From Raillietiella orientalis (Eukaryota): a stretch of DNA of 64,000 bases. The notes under the pieces are model-generated. The model saw nothing but the letters and a program-made list of their open reading frames with translations, made no database searches and was not told where the DNA came from. Both the position numbers and the translations under genes were made by a program. Each line of letters starts with the position of its first letter. Positions within the stretch are counted from its first letter, which is position 1. Of this stretch, positions 16,776 to 64,000 are shown one piece after another. The stretch is from NCBI GenBank assembly GCA_036172245.1, contig JAYWIR010000026.1, forward strand, positions 496,001-560,000. Reading direction: 5' to 3'.

Positions 16776-16779
16776 CGGG

Positions 16780-23105: not shown

Positions 23106-23109
23106 GGTC

Positions 23110-27655: not shown

Positions 27656-28952
27656 TCACATTGAACTTTTCCTCCCAACTTGAGATCCACAATTTAATTT
27701 ATTACCTAACCCATCTCTAACCCTGGAACGCTCTTTGGTTCGGTCAAAGTTAGGGAATTGGCCGTCGTAAGTGTTAACCGTCGAGGGCAACGTGCAGCTT
27801 CATGTGGCCACTCACAGTCAAACCGCTTATTAAGCGCTCAGTGGTAAAGGCAGAAGGAGCATTCGGTTGCGACTTGCATGGTGGACAGCCTCCACAGATC
27901 ATTGCTTCAAGGAGTCAGCGAGTTCATCCTCAGAATTGAGGATGCTCGCCGACGCTTTTGGCACTTAACATCCGAGAGCTGCAAATGCCAGAGGCAGTGT
28001 TCAGACTTTCTGGATTTGCACGCGAGAGGAAAAGGAAGAAATGCTTCCTGCGACCTACCCGTGGGGAAGCGTTTTCGTTCTCCCCAACGCGCACTGAGGC
28101 AGCAGCAATGAAATGTGCAGTCGAAGAGATTCCCTCAAGAGAATCCCACTCTCCTGACTGCTGCTTCCACCCTCGAGTGCGAAAAGGCATCGAATCGGAT
28201 TCGACAGATGTTCGATGGAGGTCTCAAACAGCAACCAGGGACTCCTAGGTGTCTCACGTGATGTTATGAAAGCATATTTTATGGAACCATTAATTACAGA
28301 GCGTGCATTCGTTCCTTTTTTTTATTCTCCCACAGCAAATCCTGCCTGATCCACGCTAGCCGGCATTCGTTGGGAAGAGCCGGAGAACTCCACCAAGCGG
28401 TCGGAAGATAAGAAAGAGCAGTCGATCGAAAAGGGCGTTTCAGCGATTCCAAGTCGTTTCGTGGTTGCATTCCTGGAATGAAGGTTCCATTAGTGGACGT
28501 AGGTCCACCACTCATGCAGCTGGCTGCTTCCTGTTTGCGTATTTCAAGGAGGCATCGTCCTCTCAAAGCAATGCCCAGACGGACCCCGAAACAGGGACTT
28601 TTCAGCATTCGGCATCTCTCTGGGAAAAATTTCGAGCTGTCCAATTGCTGCTACATGCGTTACCATGGTGAAAGTCTTCGGAATAAATTGTGTGCTTCCG
28701 ATGGGTAAAAAAAATAGGTGCGCTGATTTATAAGAAGATTCAGCGGTTTCTGGTTTCCTAAGAAGCAGCGAAGATTGCGATGGCCTTCATTTTTGAGAAT
28801 TCTTTCGATAGATTTTGTGGAGAAAAGAGAATATACAGACGGCTGTGTAAGCATCAAAAAAACACACACAAATGCCGCGTGTTTTAATGACCTTAACGTC
28901 AGGGATACGCGGTATTTCATTCCTCCAGAAGCCTTCATTTCCACACCGTTCA

Positions 28953-29088
28953 GCGTAGACACTTCGTGTGGTAATGCCGTGCTAAAAGGAGACTTACCTT
29001 TTTGCTCCTCCTCTTCATTAAATATCGCATTCGAATTCCAGAAGAGTTCCATTCACTTGGGGTGTCACGTTCCAACTTTCGCCCAAAT
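28953..29088 (-). repeat. 136-bp copy of the ORF1 C-terminal segment 33039-33174
   Basis: Ungapped alignment, about 11 mismatches by hand count (~92%). Confidence 0.9.
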
Positions 29089-43000: not shown

Positions 43001-43106
43001 GCTTGTGCAGTGCTGCAAGAGAAAGCTTTAAGAGGCCCCACTCGTCCAGAAAATCTTCTTACCACAGGAGGAACAGCAGCTCTGGGTACAGCATGGCGAT
43101 CTTCAT
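40004..43106 (-). CDS. Secreted pepsin-like (peptidase A1) protein with both catalytic aspartates substituted; ~364 aa, 9 coding exons
   Basis: Exons 43106-43063, 43012-42934, 41864-41747, 41687-41569, 41262-41054, 40941-40837, 40545-40386, 40326-40231, 40168-40004 splice in phase (1095 nt, no internal stop). Signal peptide MKIAMLYPELLFLLCTAQA; motifs QIGTPPEQF, WLPSKGC...C, KFNCRKSST, DGFLGL, YKDPINYV, LGTGLLRQYY, VGFA. Confidence 0.9.
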
Positions 43107-43249
43107 CTTTGGTTGGTAGGACCGGACTCGGTTCTTCTGAAGGAAGCAGCCAGGCTCTCTGGTGCCAGTGGATCACTCACCCTGATCTACTTCGCTTTTA
43201 TAGCCCACGCTGCTTTGTCTGCTCCTTTCCACCAGCAGGCCAAAATTAG

Positions 43250-46200
43250 AAGAGTCTGCAGAGATGCTCGCTCCGGAGCAGCTGCAAACTTTGCAGATAA
43301 TTATTTCTTTCAGATTCGTTGCGTGTCGATAATGGGTAAGCAACCGAATGTCGGAAATTGCGCCTCATCTCAGCTGCAGACTCGGCATGCGATCCGGGCA
43401 ATTACCTGAATCCCTGCGAGGGTGCTCGAGGGCTTCTGGCCGTTCCAGCAAGTGCCTTCCGAGATGCGCTTCCCTCCTTTTTCTCCCAACAAGAAGAAGC
43501 GCTAAAAATAAACCAATTCTCCGAAAACACGGCACTCGCCGATGTGTGCACCGAAGGATCACGCAGCACGGGAGAGGGGAGGGGGGTGGGGCTCGCACCG
43601 GGAACGAGATCAAGTGCACGGGTGTGTCCTCCACCCTCTTTCGGAGCCAAGAAGAAGAGATGCGAGTCGAAGCCATGCAGCATCCTCCGGGAAGCCGCTC
43701 CCGGCCCCAAGAGCCACGCAGCAGGCGGGAACGCGTCGAAGGGGCTTCGGTCATAAAGATTACAGAAAATACATACACACCGCTCACTATTTATATTAAC
43801 AAACAGATTTACGTATAGATTAAAGTGTAGAATGAAACAGATTATAAATATTATAAAAAAGTATGCGTGTTTATAATGTATGTTAATAGACAGGTTTATG
43901 CATAGATTAATGTATATTCTGAAAATTACAGAAAGAAAACACGTATGCTTGTTACATACTTTCAATTTATTGATTTATTTGAGATTTATATGTGGACTAA
44001 CGTAAAGGAAAATGAGTATCATCAAGATTAAAAAATTACATGTATATGCTCTATGTATAGATTTTTATGTATTTCAAATAAATAAAGACTATAGATTTAT
44101 GATAAAATACATCATAAAGATTATAAAAAATAGATATACGTGCTTAGTATATCCATTAATACATAGATTTGTGTGCAGAATAATGTGTATTATAAAGATT
44201 ATACTAAATATATGTATATGCTTGGTATATGTACGCATGCATACATTTGTATATAGATTAATGCATAGAATAGGACATATTATAAACTTTATAGAGAACA
44301 AATACAAATTCATAGTACTTGTATGAATAGAGAGATCTATTTACACATTCATATGCAAATTCGACATACCTATTTATGACTATTGCCAACATTGTGATTT
44401 GTTCATTGCATCAGAATACTCATTTGCATATAGAACTATGCATATTGCAAAGATTATGAAGAATATATGCATGCGATTATTCTATACATCAATATGTATG
44501 TTTATATATGATTAATACATGGATTAATATGCATTATTAAGAGAATAGTACGTGTGTGTTTATCCTAGATACTAACAAAATTACTTATTAGCCTTTTATA
44601 TACATTTGTATATATTACAAAGACTATCAAAAATAAATACATACGGTTGCTTTAATTGAATAAAAGCAAAAGAAGTGATTTTTTATGAGCTTTCTACTAT
44701 GTATCGATCCACACACTGATTCATGTATCAATATATACGTATATTCTAAGCACGTGTATTGGCTTTCCAGGATCTTTGGGGCTTTGGGACCGCACCCGTT
44801 TGAGGGAAAACGAGCGCCTTCGCAGGGGTCACGGAGATGCGGGGAAACGGCGTGCCTGGGGGCAGAACTCTGCCCGCTGGCTTCTCTGGAGGTCGCGCAC
44901 GAGGTCCGAGGTCGCCCGCACCGCATCTCCTCCTCGGAATGGGGGGACTCCTCCGTGGACTCCACCGCGCCGTGAAGGCTCGGCGAGCGGCGGCCAAACT
45001 CCAAGCTGCTGTCGGAAGCGTGCAGGGGGGTCCCCTACGCGGGTGGCAGCATCTCAGTGCCCCATTGCCCCCGGCAAGCGGCACGTGGGAAGCTGCTTGC
45101 CGGAGGGACTGCCGAGAGTGTTCTTCGCGGGCCTGAGATGGCGCTGCTGTTCCGTCCGCGGAAAGCTGTCCGAAGAACATTCGGGATGTTCTCCCTTCGG
45201 TCGCGCAACTTTCTACAAAAGCGAAACGTTCTCTTTTGTTTGGATCGTGACTTTGGGGAAACGGGAAGTGCAACCACCCAAGCACCCACCAAAGGCGGTG
45301 GTTTCTGTTTGGAGCTGCCCCTTCCTTGTGGTTGATGAAACGTGCAGTCTCCGTTTTCTCCACTGGCAGGACTGCGCCGGAAGTGGATGGACTTTGCTTC
45401 TTTGAGCCGCATGCAAGCAAACCGCGGACCCCGGAAGAGCCTGCAGAATACTCGATCGTAAGAGGGACTTTTTGCCTGTGGAAGGCGTTCCAAAAAAGGA
45501 GGCTGCAGTGTTCTCGAAAGGCCGCTTTCCTTGTCCGGAGCTGATGGTGCCGCCACGGCCATTTCGTTGCGCATGCATGCGGTTCTTCGAGTTATGTGGG
45601 GTTTGGAAGAGTACCATCTTCCACACCCAGCGTAAGGCTAAGAAGGTGCTGAGTTGCCACGCGCAAGCGCCGACGCGTACTGTGAAAAAGAGGAAGCAAT
45701 TCCATACAGTTTGAGAATCGGGAGATCCCGGGAAGACTATTCTGGAATGAACGCTGAGAACAAAAGAGGGAAGAGGAAGAAATATTCAACCGCCTCGATG
45801 GCGGGGGGCAAAGCTTTGCGACCATCTCTCAAAGTCGCTTTGCGAGATGGTTTCACTGTGGCAGAGTAAAGCAATAAGGGAAAACACCCCGAGGCACTTT
45901 TACCTTGTCTCCGTTTGCCCGCTTGCCACGAATCGGCTTCCGGGAGCATGCATCCCATTCGGGAGGGTGTATGCCCTGTTCCGATGTTTGGAAGACTCGA
46001 ACGCTTGGAATCGATTCTCATTGGAGGCAGCTGAGGGCCCTTCCCAGCGCTGCCAGCTACGTGTACAGTGTGGTCCAAGAAAATTAGGGTTCAGATCGTT
46101 CGAACTTGAAGAAAGCACGGAATTATTCTTTCCACATTTGATTTATCCGAAATGGAGTCCACCTGGCTCTGCATGCTGCTTTGCGCGGGATTTCAATTTC

Positions 46201-47650
46201 CGCATGGCAATGGCGTAGTGCTTTCAAGGGATCTCCTGCAAGCACAGCTGTCTGAATGTCACTGACGAGCCCCCCTGACCTGCGGTCTCATTCGCCGAAT
46301 AGGAAACGGTCGGGAAGAAGAAAATTCGGCAAGTCCGGGGATGGGGCGACGCCAGATGGGTCTTCTGTCATTCGCCTGCCTTCTTGCGCTGGCGACAGCA
46401 AGCACGGTGACCGATTGCGTGCGCGGTTTGCGGAGTGTCCAAAGTGTCCACCGCCCTTCGAGTTTCCTCCTTGAGGGCAATTTTGCACCGACGGAGACGT
46501 CGCCGTCGGGTGCCCGTTGCAACTGGGCGACCTTTGCGTTCGTCGTCCTTTCGCCGGCCAACCGTCTTCCGTCTCGAAGTCATGTCTTTGGACCATCCGT
46601 GGCTGCGTCCCCGTGGGCCTTTCGAACGGTGGCACTGCGTCCGTAGCCACAACTTTCTTCCTTCACGAAAATTTCGCCAGAGGGCGAAAACCAAAGTCTC
46701 GCGAAACGTCCCTTCACATCAAAAACGAAACACGCAGTCACGTTGGTCGTTTTCCGCACCATTTAAGGAAGGGGCATGGCAAATGGTCCCTCTGCCCGCC
46801 GGTGCACGGCATGACCACTGCAGTCTCAGAAAATCGAGTCCTCAGTCTAACACTCGTGGGTCGGGCTGCGTACATCTCTTTGCATCTTTTAGTTTGTGGT
46901 GTCTCGTACGCCCTCTTTCCTACAGTACATTTTTTCAGAATGGAAGCACAGATGGCAGAGCGGCTCCGCAGGCTCTGGCAACGTAACCAAGGCGATGGAT
47001 GTGTTTCCTTTTCGGTTTCGTGCTAGCATTCTCCAGCGACTGAAGGAGTTTTCCTCTTCTGAAGCCAACACCTACCACTCGCATCCAGTAGTTCCCTTGG
47101 CGCGCCCTCGCAGAGATGAAAATTTCCACGCCTACATCACGAACGATGAACGAAGTGGTTTCCTCCAAACTTGGAAGGAGTCTTTGTGGCATCCTTTACC
47201 CCCGAGCTCCCTTCCTGCTGCTGCTTGTAAGTTCTTCAGGCAAGCAGTACGAAGCGCGAAGAGCGCGGAAGGATTTTGTGAGGTCAAACCGCGTAGAAAA
47301 AAGCGTGAAGCGTACGGAAACGCGTATGTGATTTCGGTTCCGAAAAGCGAACCGTTCCCAATGGACGCCGTCGTCAGTGGCCAAGCGGATGCCGACCGTG
47401 TGAAGTCTTCGATTACCACGACCGAGTTCTCCTTCATGGAACGGAAGACGGCAGCACGGAGTGCGCGCTGTGTGGAGTTCGTTCCGAAAACTGCGGTGCC
47501 CAGAACAGCCCTGGCAGAGCGTGCAAATCCTGGAGTCATCCTGGAGGATCAGATACCACGGAGCAGGGTGTGGCCAAGTAAGTCTCTTTTATTGCTGCGT
47601 GAATCGGGAATGCATCGAGTGTCCCCAATCCCTTGGTCTTGTTACGTGAC
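43250..47650 (-). mobile_element. Degenerate L1/Tx1-like element (ORF1, APE, RT, post-RT) split by the AT block
   Basis: FFLRGL and LGYVARAC (ORF1, 47.3-46.9 kb), VLAGD (~46240), LPQAKSPSYD (~45470), INHKEG..NRNHR (~45320), GVHGGVPHS (~44950); after the AT block, LAPKEGGG....DL (~43640). Confidence 0.65.
43752..44778. repeat. AT-rich foldback-like block inserted in an L1 relic
   Basis: Forward AAAGATTA units (e.g. 43755, ~44115, ~44193; ~78-bp spacing); right end reverse-complement AAAGATCCTGGAAAGCCAATACACGTGC points inward. Confidence 0.65.
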
Positions 47651-48819
47651 GTGGAACGACGCAGGTGGGGAAATGACTCGTTGAGAGGTCAGGCGGTTTG
47701 CCGACCACATTACATGTGGATGGCTACTCTCACGGCTCGAATTCAGTCTTTCTTCCTTTTCATGAAAGTCAGCCAAAGCCATGGATTCTCTGACGGTTGC
47801 TTGCAAGGGCCATACGTTTATGGACTTGGAGCCAAAGGCGGGAAGTTCAGACCTTTCGGCACCTTTGAAATGGTGGTAACTTTGGGGAGAAGGGGGAAGT
47901 CGACTGAGTCTCCCATGGGAACGATTTCGATGTCATCGTTCGATAGGATTCGGAACTGCTGATGTCTGCTGGTTTGGGTGCGTTGGGGGACCTCGGAATG
48001 CTTACTGCAGCCCCGTCCATGTGTCGAGAGTCGTTCGCTTTTGTTTATTTAGCACGGATGGTAAGCAGCCTTTTTGGGCTGGATGGACAGGTGGTGTTCG
48101 TGTGAAGTGTTTCCACCGAAGCAGATGCACTCATCAGATTGTCCAATTTTCGTTTCGCTTCGGGACGCCTTTGTTCCATGCTGGTGACTCTTTGGTTTCT
48201 GGAAAATACGACCTATTTAACGAGTCGTAGAATCGGACGGCGTTTCTGCTGACGTCCAAAGTGCTCAAAACGTCTCAATACTTTTCACCATGTATGTATT
48301 TTCTTCGATGCAGACGTCCCTTTTACAAGAGTTATTATTATAAGAGTTAACCACACAACTTCGGATGCTCAGTGTTGATCCCATGTTGATGGCGCATAGC
48401 GGTTGCACCAACGAAAACTTTGGGAATGGAGTCTGTGTGGTGGATGCTCCCATCACACACACTCACAGGAGTGGAGGTGCTGCACCACTTCAGCTTCCTT
48501 TACTGCTGTCACCCTTACATGGTCGAAAGCGGTAGACAGCTACGGCGTCCGTCGACGCTGAAGCTTCTCTGGCCGATGACATGGACTGCGCAACTTCTTT
48601 CGGTCCAATCAGATGTTCTTACTCTTCTAAAGCTGCCTTGGTCTTCATGCCCATTGTACCATCACCATTCGCCGACAAATTTCGACTTTAAAAGTGGGGA
48701 ATTGGCTGAGGATCGTGGACAACGATGGGACATAGCAGAGGCTGAAGTCGCTGCCGGACGCAATTCGGGACCGGGACCCGCTGTCGGGCAACAGGACCAC
48801 GTAATCCTTGTGGTCCCAC

Positions 48820-48915
48820 GGGATCCATTGGTCACTCCGGCCTTTCCACCGTATGTGCAACTTGGGGCTCCGCAGCTCGTGATGCAATCCAAGATGCGAC
48901 ATCTTTTCCCAAGCT
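48820..48915 (-). other. Possible chromodomain fragment (retroelement/Maverick-type)
   Basis: KLHIRWKGRSDQWIPW resembles YLIKWKG....W.P. Confidence 0.3.
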
Positions 48916-49299
48916 CGGAAATTCTTCGATTGTCTTCGTTTACCTCAGCAGCACGAAACTTTCCTCTGTGGCAGAAGATCGTTCAATCTGAATCGTTTAG
49001 GGCGAATTCTGAAAGGCACTCTGTGGTCATTCGGCAGAAATTACGAGCGCATCTCGTGCGTGCTGCGAGGTGGTTGCGGCAGGGGTGGCACGGGTTTGAC
49101 CGGATCGGTCAGTGCATTGGCTCCGTGGTTTGGTTTCCACCTTTCCTCCCTGTCAATGTTTAAAATCCTACGCCGCTGTGGCGTATGCGTGGATTTCTCG
49201 TGTGCTGTGCGTGTTGTTGTAAATGAAGGGCTCAGAACTCGGTCAGGGTGTCGGAAGTTGGAATGAAAATGTAAGCATTTGCCGAGGAAGTCGCGGTGC

Positions 49300-51400
49300 T
49301 AAGGGATGGTGGCAATGGCGAGTCTCGTGGAGCACTTGAAGCACGTAGCAGCAAATAGTTTGCTGCCGTAGCTGCTGCGCTTTGTTTCTGTTTCTGGAAA
49401 CCTATAGAACTGAAATCGATTCTTATGTTTCACATGAATCGCTATAACACGAAGACATCCTCTGCTCCTGGGAGCGTGCGCGCTGGAAGGAATTTCGCAA
49501 AGCTAAGCACAGAGAGATCGCAATTCGATGTTGGGGCGGTGAAGTATCTGTTCCAAGTGAATGGCTCGCAACATTTTCTCTGGCGCCCTTGGTGGCTTCC
49601 TGGATGTGATGCAGCATTTGGGCGAGGGGGGGGTTGTATGGCGCAGCTTTGCTGTTGTCCCTGCTGAAGCCAACGACGGTGATTGGTTGCCGCTGTAGAG
49701 ATGGGTGTCGTCAGCCTTCCTGCATGACTGCATGCGTTTGGTCTTTTTTCCAGAGTCGAAGGACTTTGGCAAATGTTTTGCTTGCAGTTCCGAGCGGATC
49801 AAGTATCCAGGAGGTGGTTCATGTGTGCGATGACTGTTTGATCCTGGTCCTTCCATGGGATTCTTCTGTATTTATGATCTTGTGATTCGGAAGCAATCCT
49901 GAATAAGGTTTGTTCGTGGCGTAGAATTTCATCTTAACACCCACGGATTTACCGTTCTGGATCAATGGTAGTATTTGGAATTATGGAATTCTTCAAGAAT
50001 AGATGGAAATTTTCCGCATAGGGTTTTCCGGAAATTCTCCTTCATTGTTTTTCGAATGGTCATGTTGTCGAAGGAGATGTGGTGACGGTAAGCAAACGGA
50101 TTCCCATCTTACCACCTGAAGAGGTAACGCACTGTGCTTTTGGCTTAAGGTCCCTCCTGATGCGCTCTGCAAGGGTTGTCTCGAATACCTCGCTTTTCAG
50201 GTGTAGAGTGGTGTGGGCTCGAGTCTGCCTCTATTCTTTAGCTCTTCCTTCCTCTGTTTCCGAGTGTTCTCCTGTCTTCAGCTGGCGTCTCGAAGCCGTC
50301 TGTCCTCTGTGCGTGGTGGCGCGACATCTTTTGAGCATTGCGATCAAAGGATTTTTGGTCTTTACTGAGGGCATGAATGTCGTTGTACGTCGATTCCTTA
50401 GGAATTTTGGTTTCCATTGGTGGTAATGAGCAGAGGTTTGTGAAGATGCTTATCTCTATTGTGATCGTGGTTCGGAGTAGGGCAGACTGCTGGGTTTAAT
50501 AATCGTTGTTGAACTGTGGCTGAGCAAGAGGTCGAGTCTTGCTGAAGGAAGGAAGCCATCTGGATGATTCCCAGGAAGAGAAGGAAGGTGGCGATAGAGT
50601 GTCAGTGTCGGAGAGTATATAGAGGGCGTTCAATGAGGAGCCGTGTTGGCAGTCATCATCGTGGATGTGTTTCTCACGAGGCTACTGTATTCTCTTTGTA
50701 CACGTGTATGGTTGCTTATGGTGAAACTTCACGTGTCCATCGTGTTGCTGAAAAATGAAGTTGACAAAAAGTTGGATATAGGAAGTGTGCTGTGGAAATT
50801 GATGACTATCAATGTTTCTGTGTGGTCGGAAACGGTTAATCTGGTGAGCATAAAAAGCGTTTGTCAATATGTGAAGATTGATGGCAACATGGCTCACCAT
50901 CTCGCACATGATTCCGTTTCTTAAAGACTATGACAGCGTACTGGACCGTGTACGGCTTGTTTTGCAAAAAGTGTACCGAAGGGAAGCTCCTCACCGTTGT
51001 TCAGGAAGCGGCATCCACCTTTTTGCAGCTCTGCATGTGGATGGAGTTTCCTTTGAGGATCAAGAATCTTGCAAATGTGTTTTCTTCTGGTGTTTCTAGC
51101 ATTATCTGGTCAAAAAGGACTATCATGGGATGAGGAATTATTTGTGTTTAGCTGGACTGTTTGTGAGCAACAAATTGCAAGAAAATGGTGCTTCTGAGGA
51201 TGTAAAGAAGCAAATGGATAGGTTTCGTCGTCACCGAATACGACGAGTATGGGCGTGTTCGGTACCTGTGGCACTGGAAAGTACATATACGTTCTTGTGT
51301 CAAGTTGTTGAGAATGTGTGAGGGTGGCCAAAGGAGGCGTGCGATAAAGTGTCTTTGGCTGCAGTGGGAAGATGAGAAGTGTGAGTGTTCTGTTCACATC
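49300..51400 (-). mobile_element. Degenerate jockey/I-group LINE RT relic
   Basis: SEVFETTLAERI (~50190), SFDN (~50070), PPPG...SEL, KADDTHLYS (~49692-49718), AIHLEQIL...NI. Confidence 0.6.
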
Positions 51401-52075
51401 TCCTTGGGAACGTATCATTCGGTCAACTGTTTTACGAATGCGCGGAGGGGCTCATTTGCAGTTTCGACGTCGACCAGTCCTTCCAAATTTCTGGCACTTC
51501 GGTCAGCCCCGTTATGGAGAGCTGTTTTTCTGTTCCACTGCGATCGCGCACCGCCACCTCTGGATTGGCATTCGTTCATATAGAATGGTGCGCTGTTAGT
51601 TGTTTGTCCACAGGTCGTTCTCCATGCAGAAGGTGGGTCGAACCATGCGCTCCAGCTGCGGTGTCCCACCTACTTGCCCGGGAAAAAGGATGCGATTCCG
51701 CAGGCGGGGCCGGAAATTGCCTTCCTGTCAGAGTGCGTCAAGCAACCAGCTGAGGAGGCGGAGGACTTAATTATTCTGAGATCTCCCTGCATTCCATAGT
51801 AATGGCTTCCACATTAAGTGAACTCTGCATACAAATTGGTGAAGGGAGGAATGACTGATATTCGGCGTTGTTGTTCAGCGAATATCATATACTTCAACAG
51901 TCTGTGGTATACGCTCGGAATCAACTGACCACTCCTTCCAGTATCGTAGTGTGATGCGGCGCAAAAGATCGCACTGCTCTGTGGCGTAAAGACTCTTTTT
52001 TGGGTAGAACAAAATCTCCAGAGGCTCAGCCTTTGCGAGAGACGGTGTTACCACGGTAATGGGGACCCAAGAACG

Positions 52076-54330
52076 CTATTTTACTGGCTTTTTCGTTTTG
52101 AATAAATCATCGGCGTAGAAAGTAATGTTAAATCGATTTGAGTATCCAGCACATTCCTTTAAATCGATGTTCTCTTGAGCTGCAAATAGACAATCGTCGT
52201 TTAGAACGGAACTAGGGACTGTCCTGTTGAGATGGCGCAACTGAATGGCATGCAGCAAATGGCTTGAAATTAGCAATCGTGCCAATTAAGCTGGCACCCA
52301 GCGAATCACTAAGAACACTGGTGACAAATTCAAACAGTTCGCAGTCGGGTGTAACCCCGAAAGTGTGCTTGAATGAGCGTTCGCAAAAACGAAATGCCAA
52401 AACCTTTCGGTGGATCCAATTACTGTCCAGCATTCTCCATGCCACATCAAGTATTCGTTCACTGAGACCTAAGGGACTGCTCCTCACTATGGAGGACAAC
52501 ACCTGCAGGCCGGGTACGGAGACACTTGATCCCCATCCCTCGTCGTCCGCAGCCGCACCCTGTTGTTCCATAACCAAGGTGTCCAGACGAAGGCAAAACG
52601 CGTGAAGCGTGCCTTGCACTGTAGGACAACTGGATCCGGTCAACATCTTTCTGATGATGAGCACCTCTTCGGTTAGCTGTTCATACCGTCTCATGAGCTC
52701 ATGGTGCCCAGAGTAAGGGCTTATCAGCACGAAAGGCAAGTCCCACGCATAATGATGTAAATACTGGGCAGTCTCAAATCTCGACCAGGTCTTCTCGGTC
52801 TTGAAATTTATGTCACCGTTTCCAGAGTGCATTTCCCTATTGTGGGCTTCTGCAACTGCATGGAGGTCACGGTCTCCGTTCTCTACTGACCAACAAAGAA
52901 TTTCGCGGTGTAGGACGTCTGATGTTGTTTCAGAATAATTAATGGCGCCGGGGATCCCAACCAGAGGGAGGTTCAACCCCACGGGATTCGTACGAACCAA
53001 CAACCGCTGACACACACATCAGTGGCAGACACGGTTAAGCTCACAGGAACGGCGCCACAAGGACGAGGAGAATGCTCTCCCAAAGTGAGTCAACCGGTCT
53101 CCCGGAATATGCAGGGGTGTGGGGCCCAACGCCTCCTCGCTGGGTTTCTCCACACTCTTGGGGGCTAGGGGCAACTTCGGCCCCTCTCGCTTAATCCATA
53201 AAGTCAAGCTCGACAGCTACCGAGAGACGATGACACGCCCGGTGCTGCGAGCGGGGAGACCATGGTGTCGTACGGCTATTTGCTCCCCCAAATAGCCACA
53301 CATCCTTGTCCTGCGCCAGGAGAGTCCGGCAGACCGCGATGACAAAGCGACTTTCAGAGGGACCCTTATTCACAAAGCGGAATACACGCTTATCACCACT
53401 GATCTGCGTGGCGAACTTGACGGCCCGCTGTCATAACGAGGGCTTGATCTTCGAGTCTCCAAGAGGAGCCATGGGTGATGGTTCGCTTCCCCCTGGTGTC
53501 ACCTCCTCACCACCACTGGAGTTGCAATCCTGAGGCTCACTCTTCTTCCTCGTGGGCAAGATCGTGACCCCGCGGAGTTCCCCCTCCGCAGGCCCTGTGT
53601 CCGGTCATTCATTCGCTTGATAAGGGAGTCGGGCACCCCGCCCGTTAGGCGCTCCGACGTGTGCACTCTATCCAAACTAAGGAGTGAGAACCTCGTAATG
53701 AGGTGGTCCTCCAGAGACGAGCCTAAGTTAGAGGTGGTGCGCACCTCAACGCCAATAGGGCTAATGACGGATCTCAACAGTCTTCTCGGCTTTCTCTACG
53801 TCCACCGTGTACCGCTTTTTTTCAGGAAGGGTAAACCTGACCGTCTTCGGTGTTTTCTAGGGGATACCCCAACCCCGTCCGTATGTACGCTCTCGGTGGC
53901 GCACCCCGTAGCACGTTCGGGAACCTTGGCGGGAACTTCCGACCCCATCCCGGCTCCCTCCCCAAACTCCGCCTTCTCTGGGACTCCATTTTAGTCAGGG
54001 AAAGTCGATTCTGCCCCTACCTCGAGTCTAAGCCGCTTCAGCACCGGTAGCAGAGCGCTGAAGACCCGGGTGCAGCGGAGTTGCCCATTTTTTTTTTCTA
54101 AAATTACTCTACTCAGTTCCCGGGAGGCTATATCGAACTGCATGAGGTTCCGTGCAGTGCTTAGGTCGTATAGCACTGCCCGAGCAATTTCGCCCACCCA
54201 CGAGGCGCTGAGATCCCTGCGAGCTCGCTGGCCCACAATGGGCTCAGCTCGGCCTTCGAATGAGGAAGAGCAGCCATCACATTCGACTCTCAATTCGGGC
54301 GTCCACTGTGCAAATTGTAAATACATTGCT
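52076..54330 (-). pseudogene. Unidentified coding relic, copy A (possibly viral)
   Basis: ORFs 53991-54326 and 52212-53015 are homologous at protein level to copy B (WVGEIARAVLYDLS; HELMRRYEQLTEEVLIIRKMLTGS); no introns seen. Confidence 0.55.
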
Positions 54331-54449
54331 CATAATTCACCAGCTCTGTTATCATCCGGAGCAGATGCCGAATCAGATCATGTCCTAAATTGTAGAGAGG
54401 GTCGCTCATCACTGCTTTCCTCAGCATATTCCGGCTAATCAATCCTTTA

Positions 54450-56660
54450 ATTCTTATTGTCAAAGGGACGATCCAAAACGTCTAATCCTTAAGCTCTGCG
54501 TTCTGGTCAGGTGAGTTCTAAAATAAGTGTTGTCTGAAAAAATCTCATTGATCACCCTGACGTTTCTAAAGGTTTGAGAGGGCTCTCGTAGCATTATGGC
54601 GAGTCTTTCGATAATTAGATCCCTCGTTTTTGTATACAAAACTAACACTACCAGAACAAACACACACAATCTTATGAATGTCACTCATGTTTTGGAATAG
54701 AAACTGAAATTTAGACGTTGTTTGGTCTTCTACAATAGAGATCGAACGCTGAATAATTGGGTCTTTGCAACAGACCGAAGAGAACTGGTACTTAAGTGCA
54801 TCAGGTTTTTGATAGCTATGAAAACTATTATAATTCAGTTCCAATGAATATCCTGCATGCTGACGTTGTGGAATTTTAATTTCTTTAATCTGTTCTTCCG
54901 AAAAGGTTCATGCAACGATTTTTTTCTTCGAAAATTAAGAAATTCCAAAGATGAATCCCAATGAATGAATTTCCAATTCTGTGGGCCGTTGAATACCGCT
55001 GAACCTCGACTGACTGGGAATTCAGCTCTGGATGTGCTCCATCCCCAGGGATGGGATGCATTCTATCGGTAGGTGGTTCTCTTCTGTCATTAGCTCCTGC
55101 TAGTTTTCTAACAGGATGAGCAAGGTTTAGCATCCATCGTTATAGAGGATTCAGCAGCTATAACCTGCTGCATCACTTGGTCTTTATCATCATGTGGTCT
55201 TCTGACATTGCAGACAAGCGTTCAGATCCGCCAGATTAATGAGACAAATTGGAGTTCACAACTGCTATCACACGGCAATTTGGATAACCTGCTGGTATCC
55301 AAATCTGCTTCCAGCTCTTGAGTCTGCAGTGGGTGTATTTCGCTCATGAGGGCTAGCAGCAAAGTTGGAAATTTATGAATCGTTTAACTGTTATTCTCGT
55401 TTGTGGTCCCCGCATCTCTTCAGCATGGCCAAAGCACATCCCGGAGCATATCATTCACAAGGATGGATATTCTGGCATAAGCTTTCATCAAGAAAATGTC
55501 TTCGGAACCACTACCATGGACTTTTCTGGACTCTGTTTCGACGCCGGTGACGATGGTAACGAACATGGTCAATTAGTAGTGCTCATCGGCAGCCTTGGAG
55601 AGGACACGAGGGAGTACGCAACCCTTTTACAAGAGAATATACCGTCTATCAGCATGCGGATGGGACCCAGACGATACAAAATTCATAAGCAAGAGGATCC
55701 TCAATATTTCTGTGTGCATTCATCTCCTTGCTTGTTGAGTGGGAGAAATGTCCACCGTATGCATGCGTATACAACTGCTACTGACGACATCTCCTCAGGT
55801 AATCAATATTGCGCCCTTCAATCCAGAATATCCAAGAGATTTTTGGTTTTTCGTATAATGGGAGTCTTCATTAAGCTGTGGTGGACATGGGCAGGAAAAA
55901 CAAGAAGGATCGGAGCAGAAAGCATTTTCTCTTTCTGGAGAATCCGAGGCATGAAGGAATGAAAACATTGCTTTTGTTGGTGATCGCATTTCTACATGAT
56001 AGTTGGGCTTCCACGCCTTGGGCTTTGAACGGAGTTGCAACTCTTTTACTCAGGGGGTTTTAAAGCCTACAAGTTGATGAGCAGATGCTTCGTATCACAC
56101 ATCAGAATTCACAGACAGAATGACACAAGTGAAGTAAGCAGCCAAGGAGTCAGGTGACGCACGATCTGTCCGCGATGATAGATGAGGCATTTCGCAGTCA
56201 CTGAAGTATGGAGGAGCAAATGCTGCTTCGACGGTTGAAAGCACGCTATGTGCCATTAGTTAATTGGCTGCTTGATAGTTTAACGCCCCAAAACGCTGTA
56301 AATCACGATAATAAGCTGCAAATAATAAGCTCCTTTCTAACCTTATGTTCTCAATGATCTTCAAATAATGTCCATTTAAGAGAAGGTGCCATCGAACCTT
56401 CTCTGTCTTTCTAGCTGCATGAGTCAGCACTTCCATTGGTACTCGAACTTCACTCCCTTCTCAGAAAAATCCATTAAGAAGTAGGTACCTTGAAGAAGAG
56501 TAGATCTTGGTTTTATCGAGTTCAGCTGCTTGTTCCTTCCATGTTTAATAAGTAATTGAGAAATGCCAATCTGTTGCTGTCTGTGTCTTCTTTTCGCTAT
56601 TGCTGTGCTCAGCCACCTGCCCAGCAAGATCTACGACACCAGTTGTCGTGGCTTCTTCAA
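54450..56660 (-). pseudogene. Endogenous negative-strand RNA virus L fragment: CR IV, capping (PRNTase) and methyltransferase region
   Basis: EATTTGV..LLGRWLST (~56650-56600), KGV...PME (~56450), VLGR*T (GxxT, ~56278-56297), GQIVRH (~56160), CFSC...LNED (~55880), TTSK...IVCVCSGS (~54720-54650; GxGxG-like), in L-protein order. Confidence 0.6.
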
Positions 56661-58085
56661 AGAATTACCGCCTCACGGGCAAACTGCCTCACGATTCGTG
56701 ACGGCAAGTCTGGGTGCAGTGCACCAGCAAGCGGCTCGGGTACTTTGCCTATCTCAAGCAGGTGATCATCGGTCAAGCCGGCGGCTGAAATACCGTTGCC
56801 TAACAATCCCACTGATGTCATCCATTCGTTGCCTCCCCACGAGGTCTCGACGGTTGAGTTCTCTCGACCCGGGAGAGTACACGCTGAGTCGGAGAGCTGC
56901 TCTTCCCAACCGCCTTCCTCAAAACCTCGGTCCTGGGACTCCTGGATGTAAAGTCCTCCTGCGTAGACTGTAGGAGTGTAGCGTGCCCTGCACGGTAGAG
57001 CACCGACGGACCCAGTGAGCGTGCCCCTGATAATCTGGACTTCTTCCGCAAGCTGTTCGTGGCGTCTGAGCAGTTCCTGCGTGCCAGAATGGAGCCTCAG
57101 AACCGCCGCCTCTCTGTCGCAGGCGTGGTGATGCAACTCCTGAGCGCTTGGGAAAGTGTTGGAAACCCACACTCACCAACTTTTGGCTGGTGAGTGTGGA
57201 TTTCGCACGGGGCTCATTTGCTCCTTCTCCCTCTTGCCTCCTCTTTCTCAGTTGGGGGTCTTTCTGAACTTCTTTCCCCTTCTCGCCAGGCCTCACCGCT
57301 TGACGCCTAACAAAGACGGTGGACTCTAGCGGAATATTCCGTCATGACTGGTCACCACATGGTTGATGTCTAGGTCCCAGGTTATAGCTCCCGTGGCATT
57401 GGCCTGACTGTGGCCTTGATTTTTCCACATCCAAGCTAAGCGAACCTCCTCACGGCGAGGTCGTGCCGAGACATTGCGTCTATGATTTCGTTCCTAAGGC
57501 TACGAAGGCGTGAGTCGTAGACGGTCGCAATCAACTCACGCTCAGCCGTTATGACGTTGCCGTCAAGGCTTTCCAAAGTGACATCCTCGAAGCTCATTGC
57601 CTTCCTTTGAGGTTCTTTGGTCTTAGTCCGGGGGTTAATGTCCCCTTTATCTTAAGTTTTGCAGTCTCCGCAACGGAGCTCCTGGAGTCGACATTCGTTG
57701 GTACTGCCTGTGGAGTGTTGGGGTCTGCGGTCTGCTTAAGAGCTTCGTCCTCGTCCTCAAGGCGGTCCTCTAGTTCGCCTTGAGGACGTCCTCATGCCTC
57801 TCAGGACGGACCTGAGCGTACTTAAAACGCGAGCACACCGCAGATGCCCTCCTTTATCTTCAAGTATTAACTTTCTCTTTCTGTTTCTGTTTAACTTTCT
57901 GTTTAACGGCTTCATCTAAGCCAGAAAATGTGCACGCGCAACTCAGATCTGCGAGTCGCGCCTCGGCAATTTCCCTCACCCACAAGGCGCCGATCCGAGT
58001 GAGTGTGAGGTGCCAAAACTGATCACCTCCCGGGTCCGTCGAAGGCCGAGCACTCATTGCCCTATTCATTCCTTCTTTCGGTCGG
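56660..58085 (-). pseudogene. Unidentified coding relic, copy B (possibly viral)
   Basis: LWVREIAEARLADLS (~57990-57940) and QELLRRHEQLAEEVQIIRGTLTGS (~57080-57010) align to copy A. Confidence 0.55.
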
Positions 58086-58086
58086 A

Positions 58087-58821
58087 TTCCCAAAGGCAGC
58101 AGCATGATTGATTGCTTCACTTTCATGTTCGAGGCTTGGTAGCAGTATCTCTCGTATTTATCTCTCGGTGTCATGTCATCTGTCACGGCCTGGTCAGCAT
58201 AAAAGTAGTCGTAGAGTTTCCTATTTTCCTATTATCCCTGTGCTATGTGCTCTTGCGGACCATCATGCACGATGCATTAACCTTATCTTCTTCTAGCTGC
58301 TGGACAATTTTCCATAGTTTCGGTCTTGTACAAATGGACATCGAATAGGCAATTGACCTTATGAAGAGTCCGGTGAGCGTATCGTGGGCTGTCGAATGCT
58401 CTCGACATTTCGGAACCAACCTTTCTGCGAAAAGGTCAGCCACTACCTGAGGGGGGACTTTCTTGCTTTCCACGGTTTGTAATGCTTGCGTTACGCGCTC
58501 CGTATTGGCACACAAATGTCACACACCTCTGTGTAGAGCGTGCACGCCGAATGAGTTGCTGCTATTTCTCCTGAGCGGAGATGAGACACAGAGCAAGGAT
58601 GGAGACTCACCGTCCGCGAGATGCACGGCTGCACCGGGGATGAGCCGATCGGCCCCCCTTGGGTGGCAGTGGTGCTCTTCAGCCGTTTGACCAAAGTGTG
58701 GTGACGGCGAGATGCATTCCTTGGCAACCAAACGATCAATGACGCGTCACGCGGAGCTCCCTGAATCTCCTTCTGCGTGGCATCAGGGATGATTCCCTTC
58801 ACTCTGCCTACATATCTGGCA
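58087..58821 (-). mobile_element. MULE-type transposase fragment (copy 2, inverted)
   Basis: 735 bp, ungapped reverse complement of 23110-23844, about 9 substitutions by eye. Confidence 0.85.
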
Positions 58822-58824
58822 AGC

Positions 58825-60245
58825 GCAATAATTATGTCAACAGGTATGTGCTTCGAAAACACGCTGCGTGCTGTCGGCACGTAGATAATCCACTTTAGGA
58901 AGTGCATTTTACACTCATAGGTATAAAAGACAATCTTATCATAAGGAACCTATATCAGCGCGTTGATTCGAAATCGAAAAATGCTCTCCTGAAAAATTTC
59001 TGCACATTAAGTTCATCGGATATATTCAGTTATCCCATGTTGTCACCAATACCATTCCTGTGCCATGGTCTTGCAGACCAATTCAGCATTTGCAACACGG
59101 TTTCGTACAATGTCACTATATGGTAAGTGTACAGAAAAATACCGCACGACTGGACCGTGGAAGGGATGGGCTTTTACCACCGGATGGCATCCTCAGCTGG
59201 ATAGTGACTATCTTTAACAGCATCCTTGAACCCACTGACACGGCTCCCTGCAACTTGGCTGCCTTGGACGCGTGCGTGGGAAGCTTCGACTGGTGTCATG
59301 GCAACGTCGCATTGCTGTGGTTTTCCACCCGAGTAAGCCGAAGCTTTTATTATTAAAATTTTTACATAGAAAAATTCCATAATGAAGTCATCTTTTTGGT
59401 CTTTTTGGCTTTTGTTCTTCAGTCAGAACACATCGTTCTGATTGCCTTGAGGCACTTGTCCTTACCGACCCGCAGGCCGGAAAGGTCCTCATTGCTGTGG
59501 AAGAAAGAGCGAGTAGCGCCCCAGCGTTGCTGTGGTTCCCTTCTTGCCTTCCTATTAATTACTTTTCGTATTCTTGGGTATACTTCATTTGCATCTTTTA
59601 ACAGTCTTGATATACTTTGATACCTTGACTAAACTAAATTGTTACATTTCTTTATCATGAAATGAAATATTCAGTGACACCGAATTCTCATCAAGTTCAA
59701 TTATTGACCCAGTATCAGCAGTTCTATCAAGGCAGTCTAAGAAACCTTCAACTCGTTCTTTCATTTTATGATCACATGCCTGAAAGTAAGCAGGTAAGGG
59801 GATATTTGTGGTCCAGAACAGGAATCATGAATCTGCAGACTGGTTATCACCTTGTCCGATAATGTATCTCTTTATACCTATTCTTCTCTCTATTAAGAAA
59901 GTGAAATGCAGTTGTCGCTAATGTCCGCCCTTCATAGTGCCACCCCTTCAACTCATCTGGATGTCAAAACCAGTATCTCACTTCCTGCTGGACTTCATTC
60001 TGGGTCATTTCGAAAAAGCATTCGGGCGGATTTCGGTCAGCAGCAAGGATGATCATAGATTCTTCGAAGTATTGGCGTGTCTATGTGCATAGTCCGGTTG
60101 TACGAAATATATCATCAGTTGATTGGAAAATGGGATGTACAAATATCCAACTCCAACACATTCCAGCTCTTTCATCAATCCCTCACCTGCTGACGGAGTC
60201 CTTATGCGAGGGCTCCAGGGTGAAGACATACAACTTCTGGGGCGA
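58825..60245 (-). pseudogene. Endogenous Mononegavirales/chuvirus-like L RdRp core, copy 1
   Basis: Motif A GID.KSWN (~60183-60160), motif B VEGVA.KG.TLAT (~59953-59915), motif C IIGQGDNQ (GQGDNQ 59857-59840), motif D GSIIELDENSVS...DKEM (~59711-59645), SRLLKDANEVYP (~59610-59576). Confidence 0.85.
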
Positions 60246-60249
60246 CTAT

Positions 60250-62000
60250 ACAATCATTAACGGTTTTCTCCCTCTGTAATTAGCACTTGTGCAAGGGTTC
60301 CCTTTTGTTCTGCTGGCGTTCTTCCTGTTCAAAGCTTTCGTAAGAAACCAAATTTGCAGATGGTATTTTTTTTCGAGGCAGTGCAGTTCTTGTTGGCACT
60401 GCTTCTCGGGTTTGCTCCTTTGCTTCGGCGCTTTCGTTTGGCTACTGCTCATACTATATATTGGTCGTGTACAAATACATCCTTCAGTCTTGGGGGTTCC
60501 ATCTCTTAAAGGTGCTCTCCGATAGAGTATCGCAGTGGAGGCAACGTATTTTGTTTCTTCTTCCACTTCATCAAGTGGGAGAGCCACTCTCGAGAGCAGG
60601 TTAAAGTGGTCCTCTTCGTGTTTCCGCTCCACTCCTGAGAAGGGTTTCATATCAAAGTCACCTTTGATGCTCGCATGCCCTTACTGTATCACCAAATATC
60701 TCCTTTCCCCGTCAAAAACTGGCCGAATCGCTTATGTTTTTCTGCAGCAGGCATCAATTGGGGAGCATCGCTGCCGTCATCCGAATTTGCAGCGCTCTTT
60801 TGCCTCTGTTTCTGAAACCATGTTGGAACGCAGGTGGTTCGTACAGTGGCAAAGATAAGTTTTCTTGAAGACACTGTTCAGTATCGCTCGGGAGTTTCTC
60901 TAATATCTCAAAGTTTCCCAAGGAAGTTTATCTTTTGCACGCTGCGTACCACGTTTTCCCGTCGGTGAGACGGTAAGCTGTTCTTTGGGGGACTTTCATC
61001 AAAAGTGCTCACATCAAAATGAATTTGTGATCATAGACTTCTCCTTCCACTCTCATTCGCAAATTAACTGATTCATGTGGTTTTCTTGTGATGTTTTTTC
61101 TGATGGTGAATTAACTAATCAGTGTGAGTTCAATGCCTCCTGACAATATTGGTTTAGGGTGCCGTCTGAATCACCAAACGACATCGTTGGTTATTGTGAC
61201 ACTGGCTGCTTGCTCTGTCCAAGAAATTGAATAGTGATGTGGAATTTCGGAGATTCCTACCAGCAGAGAATAAATCTCAGAGGAGGAATGAGTAGAGTAC
61301 TCTGTTAAAAGGATGGTTTTCCGAATCATTCCGGGTGAGGCCAGTTGGCAACTTTTATGCACCGGGAGCTGTAAAGATTGTTTGCTCTGTTACTTTCGTT
61401 CACCCAATCTTGAGCAAGAAATCGTTTGGTCCACCAGCAAGCATGAGGGTCTAAAAATTGATATGGCATCGTGATTCTTTCCGTGGGTTCTTTGCATCAC
61501 CAAAGTTTCAATAGCACGTTGGGCGTTCCGAGGTCTTTAGGTCCAGAAATGGCAACGCAGTGAGGACAGTGTGTGAAGGGTATCCAAAACGAAGTCTTGC
61601 CGTTGAGTGCGAAGAAACCTTAGGTGTTTTGCATAATGGCAAGAAAAGTGAGTTGGGATTTCTTCGAAGGCCATTCGTTCCTATAGGGACGTCGTGTAAT
61701 ATCAAGGAGATTCTCGGATTAGTCTCAGTCTCCCATCGCAGCGTATTCCTTTTTCATGTTGTGAGGACAAAACGTTGTTCATACGCAGACCTTCGCCTGA
61801 GGCGTTCTCCCGGCATTGGATCTCTGATCGTTGGCTTATCCTCACGCTCTGATTTGCTTATCAGTTGCCTTTCGAGTCGTTGTGAAACTCCCTGGATATG
61901 ATGTTTTTAAATGAAACGTTAATTACTGCCTGCAAATCGGAATCAAAGAAACTGCTGTTCGACAGTGTGCGTTCAATGCCTTCTGTCGATCGTACACTAA
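60250..62000 (-). pseudogene. Endogenous L RdRp core, copy 2
   Basis: RLRFGYP (R.WGHP, ~61590), motif-A-like ~61060, FQKQRQK (motif B, ~60810), LTGKGDIW (60715-60692), LPLDEVEEETKYVASTAILYRRAPLRDG (motif D, cf. GL.IN.DET..S....YGK.P..RG). Confidence 0.75.
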
Positions 62001-62289
62001 AGTGTCTTACATGATTAGGAACTCAAACCATCACTTCATCAATACTACCTCTCAGACACATTTCATCACTCATCTACTTTACATTCTTCATTATATTCCC
62101 CCCCGTCTACACCACCAAAGGGACATGGAGAGGGTGCTGCCTTACTGGATGTTTGGGAAATTGGAGCAGCAAGGGAAAAGGACGAAATTGTTTGCATTTC
62201 AGCTTTTACCATCTTGCGAGAGAGGATCGCCGCGATGGAAGATGAAAATGTATTTGTGGGCCCCGTGAACTGGGCAGCAGCACCTACTA

Positions 62290-64000
62290 CTTCAAGGACA
62301 GAATTCGAAGGAGGATAGCATCGGAAGCAACTGATTCGAGTGTTCCTTCCAGAGGATCCGCGACTAAATCCGAGTGCGGTTGACCAAGCGCAGCCAGAAG
62401 GTATCCGTTTTCTTCGCTCTTATCATTTGCAAGCGGATTTCTGCATGGAGTTTTCTCTCCACTCGTGTAACTACAAGCTTTCACTTTTTTAAGGCATCGC
62501 ATATAGTGGGATGCGTTTAAGCCTCTCTAATTCTTGGTTGGCAGTGTATTCTAAGAATGCAATGAGCTCGTTTTATTGCATTCCATTTACACATTCACGC
62601 TCATTGATTTGATGACTCCTTTATGAGATGTGAGTGAATTCGGAGACTCATGTGCTGGCCATGCAGACAACTGTAGGATATCCATTTAATCTTCGAGGTG
62701 CAAGAGCAGCGTTGATGATAAGAAACATACTGCAGGACACTGTCCGTTTCGTCGATTTGCACATCAAGTCGAGAGGGCAAAACGGGGCACAGCAGTACTC
62801 TGCAAATGGGCATTCCTGGTTTCCAAGAGCTGATGGAAAAAACGAGACTTGGTCCAGTTGCGAGAACATACCACAGAATCTTCCGTGTGCCTCCATATCA
62901 GCTCTCTCCAACGCCTTCATGGGCACCAAAAACTCATACTCTTTCGCTGAAGAATCTTTTCAAATATAGAAACTCGGAGAAGTTGAAAAAAATGGGTTTA
63001 TGTTTTGCTGAGCTCTGATGCAAACTGCTTCCAAGTCTGACACGTGACGGTAAAAGTGTTGTCGGTAGCCGCTTCTGCTCTATCATTGCCCAAGTCAACG
63101 GGTTGAACACCATCATGGATAAGCCCCGCCGTGGCTGTTCTTTCTAATGATTGCGCGTATCGTCTCCTCTTCGCTTCGCTGCGCTAAACAGGGAAAATCT
63201 AATATTCATTGAACTATTCGTTGTACCTATTAAGTGTTTCGAGACCATTAGTCAAGTCATCCGCAGATACGACTTCGCTTGCGCAAGAGACTGAACCTTC
63301 TTCTATATTGTCTCAAATACTGGTAATCTGAGCATTTGTTAGTATGATGTACACAGTCGTGATGGGTAGGGCAAGAATTTTGGCCACCCGAAAGACTCCA
63401 CACACTTGTCCACAGCACTTTGTTAGATATGATTGCTGTATGCACTTTCTTTTCTGTCAATCTAAAGTTGAACCATATCGAATATCTCGCTGACGTGTCA
63501 GTCGTTTTTTTCTAGAGCTTCTTTTGTATCAGTTAGCTGCATTCATTCCAGAACAGTCACAGATCGTAATCAACTCTATGGTGATATCGTCTCCTGACCA
63601 TGTTTCCTTGATATTTTCGCCGGGTTCAATGTTGTTTGATTTAGCTGCAGCAGCATCTAGCCAGTTCCATTAGTGTTTTTCGTTTTTTACAACTTTTCTC
63701 ATCTTCATAGGTGAGTACTCCTCACTGATCTTGGGATATGGGAAAGTGCATATAGCAGTTTATCATGATCTTCCTTTGGGATCCCCCAAGACTAGAAAAT
63801 ATCTGCGTAGAGACAACTGCCTTCACATGAGTAACGTCTGCAACTTCATAAAACCGAGCTCTGATTATGCAAACCCTCAAGTGTTTCTGCAACCAGACCT
63901 TTCCATGTTCTCATCGGGTGGCAGAGTGCACTGTCCTTTGATGCACCTTTTGACCCAAGTTTCCTCTTCTGGAGAACATCTCGGAGGTCCAGCATTCTAC
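62290..64000 (-). pseudogene. Endogenous L RdRp core, copy 3 (may extend beyond window)
   Basis: GENIKE (~63615), RYSIWFNFR (motif A, 63487-63461), RGDD (63170-63159; one substitution from GDN), SEFLYLKRFF (motif D), LAPRRLNGYP (LP..LGG.P), LVADPL (~62360). Confidence 0.65.

Follow-up and report, generated by a model that had tools for sequence, protein, structure and literature searches.

A decayed partiti-like RdRp relic shares its strand with neighbouring repeats in gene-poor DNA of Raillietiella orientalis

The window analysed here is a 64,000-nucleotide stretch of a Raillietiella orientalis contig, the final third of which (43250-64000) combines decayed repeat DNA with a relic of viral origin (Table 1). 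As judged by homology searches, the sole identifiable relic in this region is a pseudogenised copy of the RdRp of a partiti-like (dsRNA) virus, lying in two halves on the minus strand. In and around it lie two copies of a repeated element, here called X, a short duplicated fragment, here called R, and two long plus-strand open reading frames; about 77% of the region carries no annotation.

Table 1. Features located in the region 43250-64000.
Feature	Position	Strand	Remarks
Last large AT-rich block	43701-44800		78-bp tandem repeat at 44114-44263
Long ORF, 263 aa	46893-47681	+	Without homolog; same frame as the next long ORF
Weak partiti-like RdRp motif, putative	47472-47537	+	Within ORF 46893-47681
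Long ORF, 257 aa	48390-49160	+	Without homolog; same frame as the previous long ORF
Partiti-like RdRp EVE, C-terminal half	51826-52454	-	Matches P0001 aa 244-456
Element X, copy A (X-A)	52455-54310	-	Gap in P0001 alignment, between the RdRp halves
Partiti-like RdRp EVE, N-terminal half	54311-54856	-	Matches P0001 aa 48-231
Element X, copy B (X-B), diverged	56949-57994	-	Same orientation as copy A
Fragment R, 735 bp	58087-58821	- (inferred sense)	Inverted copy of 23110-23844 (blastn)
GDNQ tetrapeptide in 33-aa ORF	59840-59851	-	Probably the spot read as 'L core'

An exhaustive phmmer search, covering only ORF 52215-53018, retrieved P0001, a 459-aa RdRP_1 protein (E 3.5e-8; Pfam RdRP_1 assigned to P0001 itself at 2.8e-47), two segments of which are collinear with the two minus-strand blocks. 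In tblastn comparisons with P0001, the N-terminal half matched at 37% identity over 189 aa (E 5e-25) and the C-terminal half at E 6e-17 and 1e-11, while a clade HMM scored 61.5 bits on the former and 22.9, 14.6 and 3.5 bits on the latter, against a maximum of -0.1 among 30 decoys. Motif C is present as NDD at 52193-52201, replacing GDD, and the motif B region of the C-terminal half is degenerate, yet alignable; motif A (RdRp aa 232-243) is missing and a 1.86-kb insert stands in its place. Each half bears four in-frame stops (eight in total), at least two frame changes fall in the C-terminal half and, with the 1.86-kb interruption, the reading frame is disabled. RdRp similarity, collinear motif-bearing coverage and a disabled frame are as expected of a non-retroviral EVE. 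A further match, to P0002 (DUF5666), was discarded as a low-complexity chance match.

Relatives of P0001 (n=55) include partiti-like viruses of brine shrimp and tick and one associated with Scaphoideus titanus, as well as genome copies in Trichogramma and Apolygus; a search of viral_contigs returned no close relative of P0001. The relic grouped in a quick tree as sister to P0001 (SH-aLRT 91), within a clade of 19 rows (99), on a long branch (2.15), and even P0001, its nearest relative, is only 34-48% identical to it. Partiti-like viruses are common and persistent in arthropods and poorly understood, and genomic relics date old infections and connect virus lineages to host lineages. The relic has an origin in the RdRp of a partiti-like virus associated with arthropods, in common with the RdRp-like copies that the genomes of Trichogramma pretiosum (LOC106655011) and Apolygus lucorum contain and with partiti-like NIRVS described from Ixodes scapularis and Phlebotomus papatasi (PMC6580184). 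Like other arthropod partiti-like NIRVS, it falls within an insect-associated clade, and it appears to be embedded in cellular repeat DNA beside retrotransposon relics; unlike those known, it is heavily decayed, with its eight stops and frame changes, and is cut at motif A. As matters stand, it adds another to the decayed EVEs that lie in repeat DNA.

The insert at motif A is X-A, and the 'unknown copies A and B' of the initial annotation, which placed both on the minus strand, are real features. X-A contains a stretch resembling P0003 (52542-52856, tblastn E 1.5e-11), its frame runs on into the C-terminal half of the RdRp to form the 268-aa ORF 52215-53018, and one frame of its minus strand is specifically depleted of stops (4, compared with 19-20; p 7.6e-4). 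X-B, some 600 bp shorter between the blocks common to both, matches X-A in four collinear minus-frame segments (55% over 49 aa, 67% over 18 aa, 54% over 28 aa and 48% over 29 aa), with DNA identity of only 68% over 110 bp. The two copies may not be independent and could share a single origin. Searches of Pfam, PDB and Atlas gave no match for X or P0003, and neither had relatives in viral_contigs or metagenome_contigs.

The two copies of R are 98.6% identical, with sharp ends and unrelated flanks in the alignment. We assigned R to the minus strand because the longer copy at 23 kb has its ORFs on the plus strand, where stop depletion in the plus frame was also found (23701-24900, p 6.6e-4). The ORF in that copy (23756-24508) had no Pfam family, no relative in viral_contigs or PDB and none among 644 longer candidates, with nothing usable from Atlas, and its single-sequence AlphaFold model reached a pLDDT of 33.9.

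All four verified units (RdRp relic, X-A, X-B and R) thus lie on the minus strand, as had been claimed for some ten relics of transposable elements and viruses; the claim of a shared strand holds for these four, of which only one is a virus relic, and from a different virus than the one named. Four of four on the minus strand gives a two-sided binomial p of 0.125, and long ORFs occur on both strands, so that an orientation beyond chance is not upheld. ORFs of at least 200 aa number four on the plus strand and three on the minus strand, and those of at least 250 aa number four (two plus, two minus) against 0.12 expected from 200 dinucleotide shuffles.

Both of the longest plus-strand ORFs lack a Pfam family and relatives in viral_contigs, and the second of them (48390-49160) shows no RdRp likeness. 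The putative motif within the first was returned by three related tblastn queries at E 0.043-0.099, but it does not rise above background: HMM scores of -6.8 and -4.3 fall within the decoy range, and hhalign gave a probability of 11% over 23 columns. It is an unproven motif that, if real, would violate a one-strand rule.

Fragments had been described as abutting with little spacer, which is true of the nested pair EVE and X-A and of X-B and R but not elsewhere, the verified pieces summing to ~4.8 of 20.75 kb (23%). Two further observations on the wider window agree with the initial annotation. Orientations in 1-43 kb are mixed, with PiggyBac on the plus strand (8681-9295) and an RT on the minus strand (30818-31630), and AT-rich blocks (GC<0.35 over 300 bp) are lost after ~45 kb, six blocks of 400-1600 bp up to 44.8 kb giving way to just two of 300 bp. 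The 64-kb window also carries a pepsin-like exon fragment. Scans for Rfam families, tRNAs and tandem repeats turned up only the 78-bp repeat, and a relaxed self-comparison found no additional repeats in the region above decoy level.

Base composition is skewed along the region. On the plus strand of 43250-64000, A (4969) is outnumbered by T (5828), a skew of -0.080 (~8 SD) against 0.000 in 1-43249, located mostly in the unannotated parts. G exceeds C on the same strand at 45-52 kb, the GC skew reverses at 52-60 kb, and the minus strand at 57-64 kb has a strong excess of A over T. The T>A skew fits either A-rich relics in minus sense or transcription of the plus strand.

We consider it somewhat more likely than not (about 55%) that this is decayed repeat DNA with few genes, probably of an arthropod, in which a single dead copy of a partiti-like RdRp can be identified on the minus strand, and that the sharing of a strand needs no special mechanism. 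What the EVE, the X copies and the R duplicate are, how they are arranged and how they have decayed is observed; to this the reading adds a history. Viral RNA would have been reverse-transcribed and then integrated in the germ line, a route that we infer, and the integrated copy would next have been broken in two when 1.86 kb of element X came to lie at motif A, and would have acquired stops and frameshifts. Just upstream, and likewise on the minus strand, are the second X copy and a young 735-bp fragment of another element, R; the common orientation of the four units fits chance plus local duplication. On this reading the locus probably has no cluster function. Weighing on the other side are the 77% without annotation, the T>A skew of the plus strand, the strand common to every verified unit and the enrichment of arthropod EVEs in piRNA clusters (PMC6580184, PMC7161354).

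Among the alternatives, the one that survives best is a uni-strand (flamenco-type) piRNA cluster, in which a long plus-strand precursor antisense to the EVE, X and R would supply primary piRNAs against virus and elements; on our analysis it is unlikely, and the structural argument for it is much weaker than had been stated. All of the verified units share the minus strand, one insertion is nested in another, a young fragment has been captured amid old relics, and the setting is gene-poor, with a plus strand rich in T and, at 45-52 kb, in G. Against this, the four-of-four orientation is not significant, X-A and X-B possibly have one origin, verified relics make up less than a quarter of the stretch, and long ORFs are as frequent on the plus strand as on the minus strand, one of them with the weak partiti-like motif.

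The idea of a cluster stays plausible because arthropod EVEs often lie in piRNA clusters, and there are precedents in tick and mosquito. In Ixodes, 22% of NIRVS lie in piRNA clusters, where 90.9% of small RNAs are antisense (PMC6580184). Cluster 38 of Aedes aegypti is a 143-kb, same-strand, 'flamenco-like' EVE cluster with 17 EVEs, 73 TEs and a Ci site, for which a single antisense transcript and phased 24-29 nt piRNAs were shown (PMC7161354). Our locus resembles it in having EVE and repeat fragments on one coding strand, repeat-rich intergenic DNA and juxtaposition of TE and EVE, but measures 21 kb and has one EVE and three other units. Drosophila flamenco likewise has element fragments arranged on the same strand (PMC7161354). 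It exceeds 100 kb and is dominated by gypsy-type LTR elements, whereas our locus gave no signal of LTR, gag or pol.

In its fuller version, which we rate as slightly less likely still, the locus would be a small uni-strand piRNA cluster whose plus-strand precursor carries antisense memory of a partiti-like virus, X and R, and the near-identical inverted copies of R, plus-sense at 23.1 kb and minus-sense at 58.1 kb, could pair in one long transcript, seeding siRNAs. If true, a persistent dsRNA virus would be remembered here in heritable form, and antisense small RNAs made at the locus would bring a family of dsRNA viruses, to our knowledge a class rarely linked to piRNA immunity, within the reach of EVE-based piRNA memory.

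The initial annotation had listed several relics that our searches did not recover. No TE or viral Pfam family was found in any of the 243 ORFs of at least 50 aa, nor in frames translated with stops read as X, where L1, chromodomain, jockey-type RT and MULE relics had been reported, although the positive control in 1-43 kb worked (PiggyBac at 2.7e-16, and RVT_1). For an 'L C-terminal half' and 'three L cores', Pfam, PDB and a large protein collection likewise gave no homology to a viral L polymerase of the Mononegavirales/Bunyavirales type. The GDNQ on which an L core probably rested had no PDB or Pfam match at E<=10 and none at E<=1 among 362 candidates; the tetrapeptide turns up three times when the window is translated in all six frames, and the one at 59840 is probably a chance match. 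'FYADD' at 52106, proposed as RT, falls within the partiti-like RdRp relic. Motif-level reading (GDNQ, YADD) can thus mislabel relics, and by homology those of L1, chromodomain, jockey, MULE and L were not detectable in any form.

Pfam has a sensitivity limit here, returning no family at E<=10 even for the proven N-terminal half of the RdRp, so its negatives are compatible with further diverged relics. That such virus relics escaped detection, for example highly diverged pieces of an L-type or other polymerase in 58.9-64 kb, is nonetheless improbable in our estimation. The miss of a proven relic by Pfam, the reality of copies A and B and of the spot read as RT, and the strong excess of A over T that the minus strand carries at 57-64 kb speak for it; the negative results at GDNQ in all three collections speak against it, as do the segments of 58.9-64 kb, which have no mutual similarity at E<=0.05 and no frame-specific stop depletion.

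Intronic insertions show an antisense bias, since sense ones disturb splicing and polyadenylation, and transcribed DNA tends to T>A and G>C on its sense strand. If the stretch lay within a host gene on the plus strand, in a long intron or UTR, or were otherwise transcribed from that strand, mostly antisense insertions would have survived and the skew would be transcription-coupled. This would accommodate the T>A over 21 kb and the G>C at 45-52 kb, but is marginally the least probable account, as the GC skew turns over at 52-60 kb, no plus-strand exon or Pfam domain of such a gene was found in the window, and the only host-like exon piece, the pepsin-like fragment at ~41741-41846, lies on the minus strand.

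The best-supported reading of the 43.25–64 kb region is an old partiti-like EVE, the RdRp pseudogene of a partiti-like virus, nested with two repeats (X and R) in decayed, gene-poor DNA. An exhaustive phmmer search, run for the single ORF at 52215–53018 (−) against 1.84 billion representatives, returned three proteins. One of these, P0001 (459 aa, with RdRP_1 over nearly its full length; Pfam 2.8e-47), aligned with the window as two collinear blocks on the minus strand. When a profile was built from the 17 closest proteins, the relic blocks scored 61.5, 22.9, 14.6 and 3.5 bits, compared with a decoy best of −0.1 (n = 30). From 6508 candidates, 55 relatives of P0001 were recovered at E ≤ 1e-5, on contigs of ~1.5 kb; these included Scaphoideus titanus-associated partiti-like virus 1, brine shrimp partiti-like virus 4, Lhasa Parti tick virus 1 and one deltapartitivirus, as well as genome-encoded copies from Trichogramma pretiosum and Apolygus lucorum. 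In a quick, preliminary ML tree, the relic N-half adjoined P0001 (SH-aLRT 91) on a long branch (2.15), both falling with insect-associated sequences in a 19-row clade (support 99). Each half of the relic contains four in-frame stops, and the reading frame changes at least twice; its motif C reads NDD (52193–52201, −) and motif A (P0001 aa 232–243) is absent.

The halves are separated by 1856 bp of element X (copy X-A), the minus frame of which is stop-poor (4 stops where the remaining two frames have 19–20, p 7.6e-4) and matches P0003, a 218-aa database protein without a family, at 52542–52856 (E 1.5e-11). Copies A and B of an unknown element, listed in the initial annotation, proved real: X-A and X-B share four collinear minus-frame blocks (55% over 49 aa, 67% over 18 aa, 54% over 28 aa and 48% over 29 aa), with only 68% identity at the DNA level. 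The phmmer query itself is a 268-aa open frame that joins the P0003-like end of X-A in frame to the RdRp motif-B region; the shared frame is probably fortuitous (1 in 3).

Read along the minus strand, R lies directly upstream of X-B. The stop-poor plus frame at 22838–25600 (18 stops vs 36–39 in the other two) is the parent of this 735-bp copy. We infer the minus sense of R only from its 23-kb copy, which extends into an intact 251-aa plus-strand ORF (23756–24508) with frame-specific stop depletion, for which relatives were sought and none detected, and of which a structure model was uninformative.

Coordinates of relics and repeats in the window
Feature	Position	Strand	Description
RdRp relic N-half	54856-54311	-	P0001 aa 48-231, 37% identity, E 5e-25
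X-A	52455-54310	-	insert between RdRp halves
RdRp relic C-half	52454-51826	-	P0001 aa 244-415 (E 6e-17) and aa 395-456 (E 1e-11)
X-B	56949-57994	-	old second copy of X, same strand as X-A
R	58087-58821	- (presumed)	735 bp, inverted copy of 23110-23844, 98.6% identical, sharp ends
PiggyBac-type transposase	8681-9295	+	DDE_Tnp_1_7, E 2.7e-16, profile 246-349 of 349 (C-terminal part)
RT relic	30818-31630	-	two ORFs, RVT_1 E 5.5e-6 and 1.9e-5; YADD at 30814-30825

The transposon relics listed for the region (L1, chromodomain, jockey-type RT and MULE) were not recovered. Translations with X at stops gave no Pfam family at E ≤ 0.01 in all six frames of 43000–53501, and none at E ≤ 0.1 in the three minus frames of 53199–64000. 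All 243 stop-to-stop ORFs of at least 50 aa overlapping 42.85–64 kb were also scanned against Pfam: 121 gave a single weak match (DUF5746, E 0.0074) and the other 122 gave six (RIC1, TERT_C, DUF7483, LSM12_LSM, Sigma_1s and CSF-1, E 0.0029–0.046), every one below curated cut-offs, and transposon and polymerase families were absent among them. The scan did recover the PiggyBac-type transposase and the RT relic when run, as a positive control, on the 150 longest (≥104 aa) of 534 ORFs of at least 50 aa before 43 kb, so moderately preserved TE relics would be detectable. Pfam was blind to the proven RdRp N-half, even at E ≤ 10, and its negatives elsewhere are therefore weak evidence. Within the RdRp relic, FYADD at 52106 sits ~30 residues past motif C; if this was the source of the jockey-type reading, it is a chance look-alike.

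Putative L-polymerase relics, reported as three cores, are likewise unconfirmed. A motif scan placed QGDNQ at 59840–59851 (−) within a 33-aa ORF, and GDNQ turns up three times across the window's six frames, about the chance level. There was no match at E ≤ 10 in PDB for a 500-aa X-read around GDNQ or in Pfam for a 184-aa tile, and none of 362 word-sharing candidates (660–2100 aa) from a 5.8-billion-protein collection reached E ≤ 1. Segments of 58.9–64 kb showed no mutual similarity at E ≤ 0.05, whereas three copies of one polymerase core would be expected to match one another.

All relics here had been placed on one strand, as in a uni-strand piRNA-like cluster. The four verified units (EVE, X-A, X-B and R) are indeed all minus, but this does not exceed chance (two-sided p 0.125, rising to 0.25 should X-A and X-B have a single origin), and they span ~4.8 of 20.75 kb. 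Long ORFs are in excess over 200 dinucleotide-preserving shuffles, both at ≥200 aa (7 vs 0.76 expected; four plus, three minus) and at ≥250 aa (4 vs 0.12; two on each strand), and their strand split counts against uniform orientation. Two of them, at 46893–47681 and 48390–49160, occupy one common plus frame; within the former, 20 residues resemble a partiti-like motif (tblastn E 0.04–0.1 with three related queries), at a level inside the decoy range and with an hhalign probability of 11%. Mixed orientation in 1–43 kb was borne out by the PiggyBac and RT relics, and the large AT-rich blocks do end, at 44.8 kb.

The structural premise of the piRNA-cluster reading is thus weaker than first stated, and we consider such a cluster unlikely. 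Analogy does make the idea reasonable. Of the 143 NIRVS in Ixodes, 32 fall inside predicted piRNA clusters, and antisense molecules make up 90.9% of the small RNAs from NIRVS (PMC6580184). Aedes has a 143-kb cluster whose 17 EVEs and 73 TEs share one strand; it is transcribed as a single antisense RNA and yields phased piRNAs (PMC7161354). The plus strand of 43.25–64 kb is also richer in T than A (A 4969, T 5828, ~8 SD), with no such skew in 1–43 kb as a whole; the skew is concentrated in unannotated parts (48–52 and 57–64 kb), and has the same direction at 26–34 kb around the minus-strand RT (AT skew −0.137). A-rich minus-sense relics decayed past recognition and plus-strand transcription fit this skew equally well. 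Among the rival readings, further relics beyond detection seem more doubtful than a cluster; marginally less probable again is an intronic or otherwise transcribed plus-strand context in which surviving insertions would be antisense-biased.

Elsewhere, the window has a GC content of ~50% without CpG depletion (o/e 0.79–1.14), and tRNA and Rfam scans found no genes in it. Together with the clade of the virus, the undepleted CpG suggests that the host is probably an arthropod. The sole host-like signal near the region is an isolated 40-residue stretch resembling one exon of a pepsin/cathepsin D-type aspartic protease, at ~41741–41846 (−) (PDB gastricsin E 6.5e-5, residues 15–52; Pfam Asp 5–41), with no further Asp pieces in the minus frames of 34–43 kb. 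The longest ORF in the window (377 aa, 16444–17574, −) shows frame-specific stop depletion (1 vs 7 and 15) and has no Pfam family. Two short partiti-like RdRp-like bits were seen: 'VRLVWEYPFHIIL' at 20089–20175 (+), which scored 5.0 bits with a broad profile (decoy maximum −3.4, n = 20) and was unremarkable with a narrower one, and 19342–19479 (−), at tblastn E 0.008 only. Nearby, 18992–19038 and 26409–26362 match briefly in inverted orientation (90% over 48 bp), and 19.0–19.2 kb and 26.2–26.5 kb share weak protein-level similarity. Two repeat pairs flank the RT region, one inverted (7726–8118 and 29650–29263, 74% over 394 bp) and the other direct (28940–29088 and 33026–33174, 89% over 149 bp).
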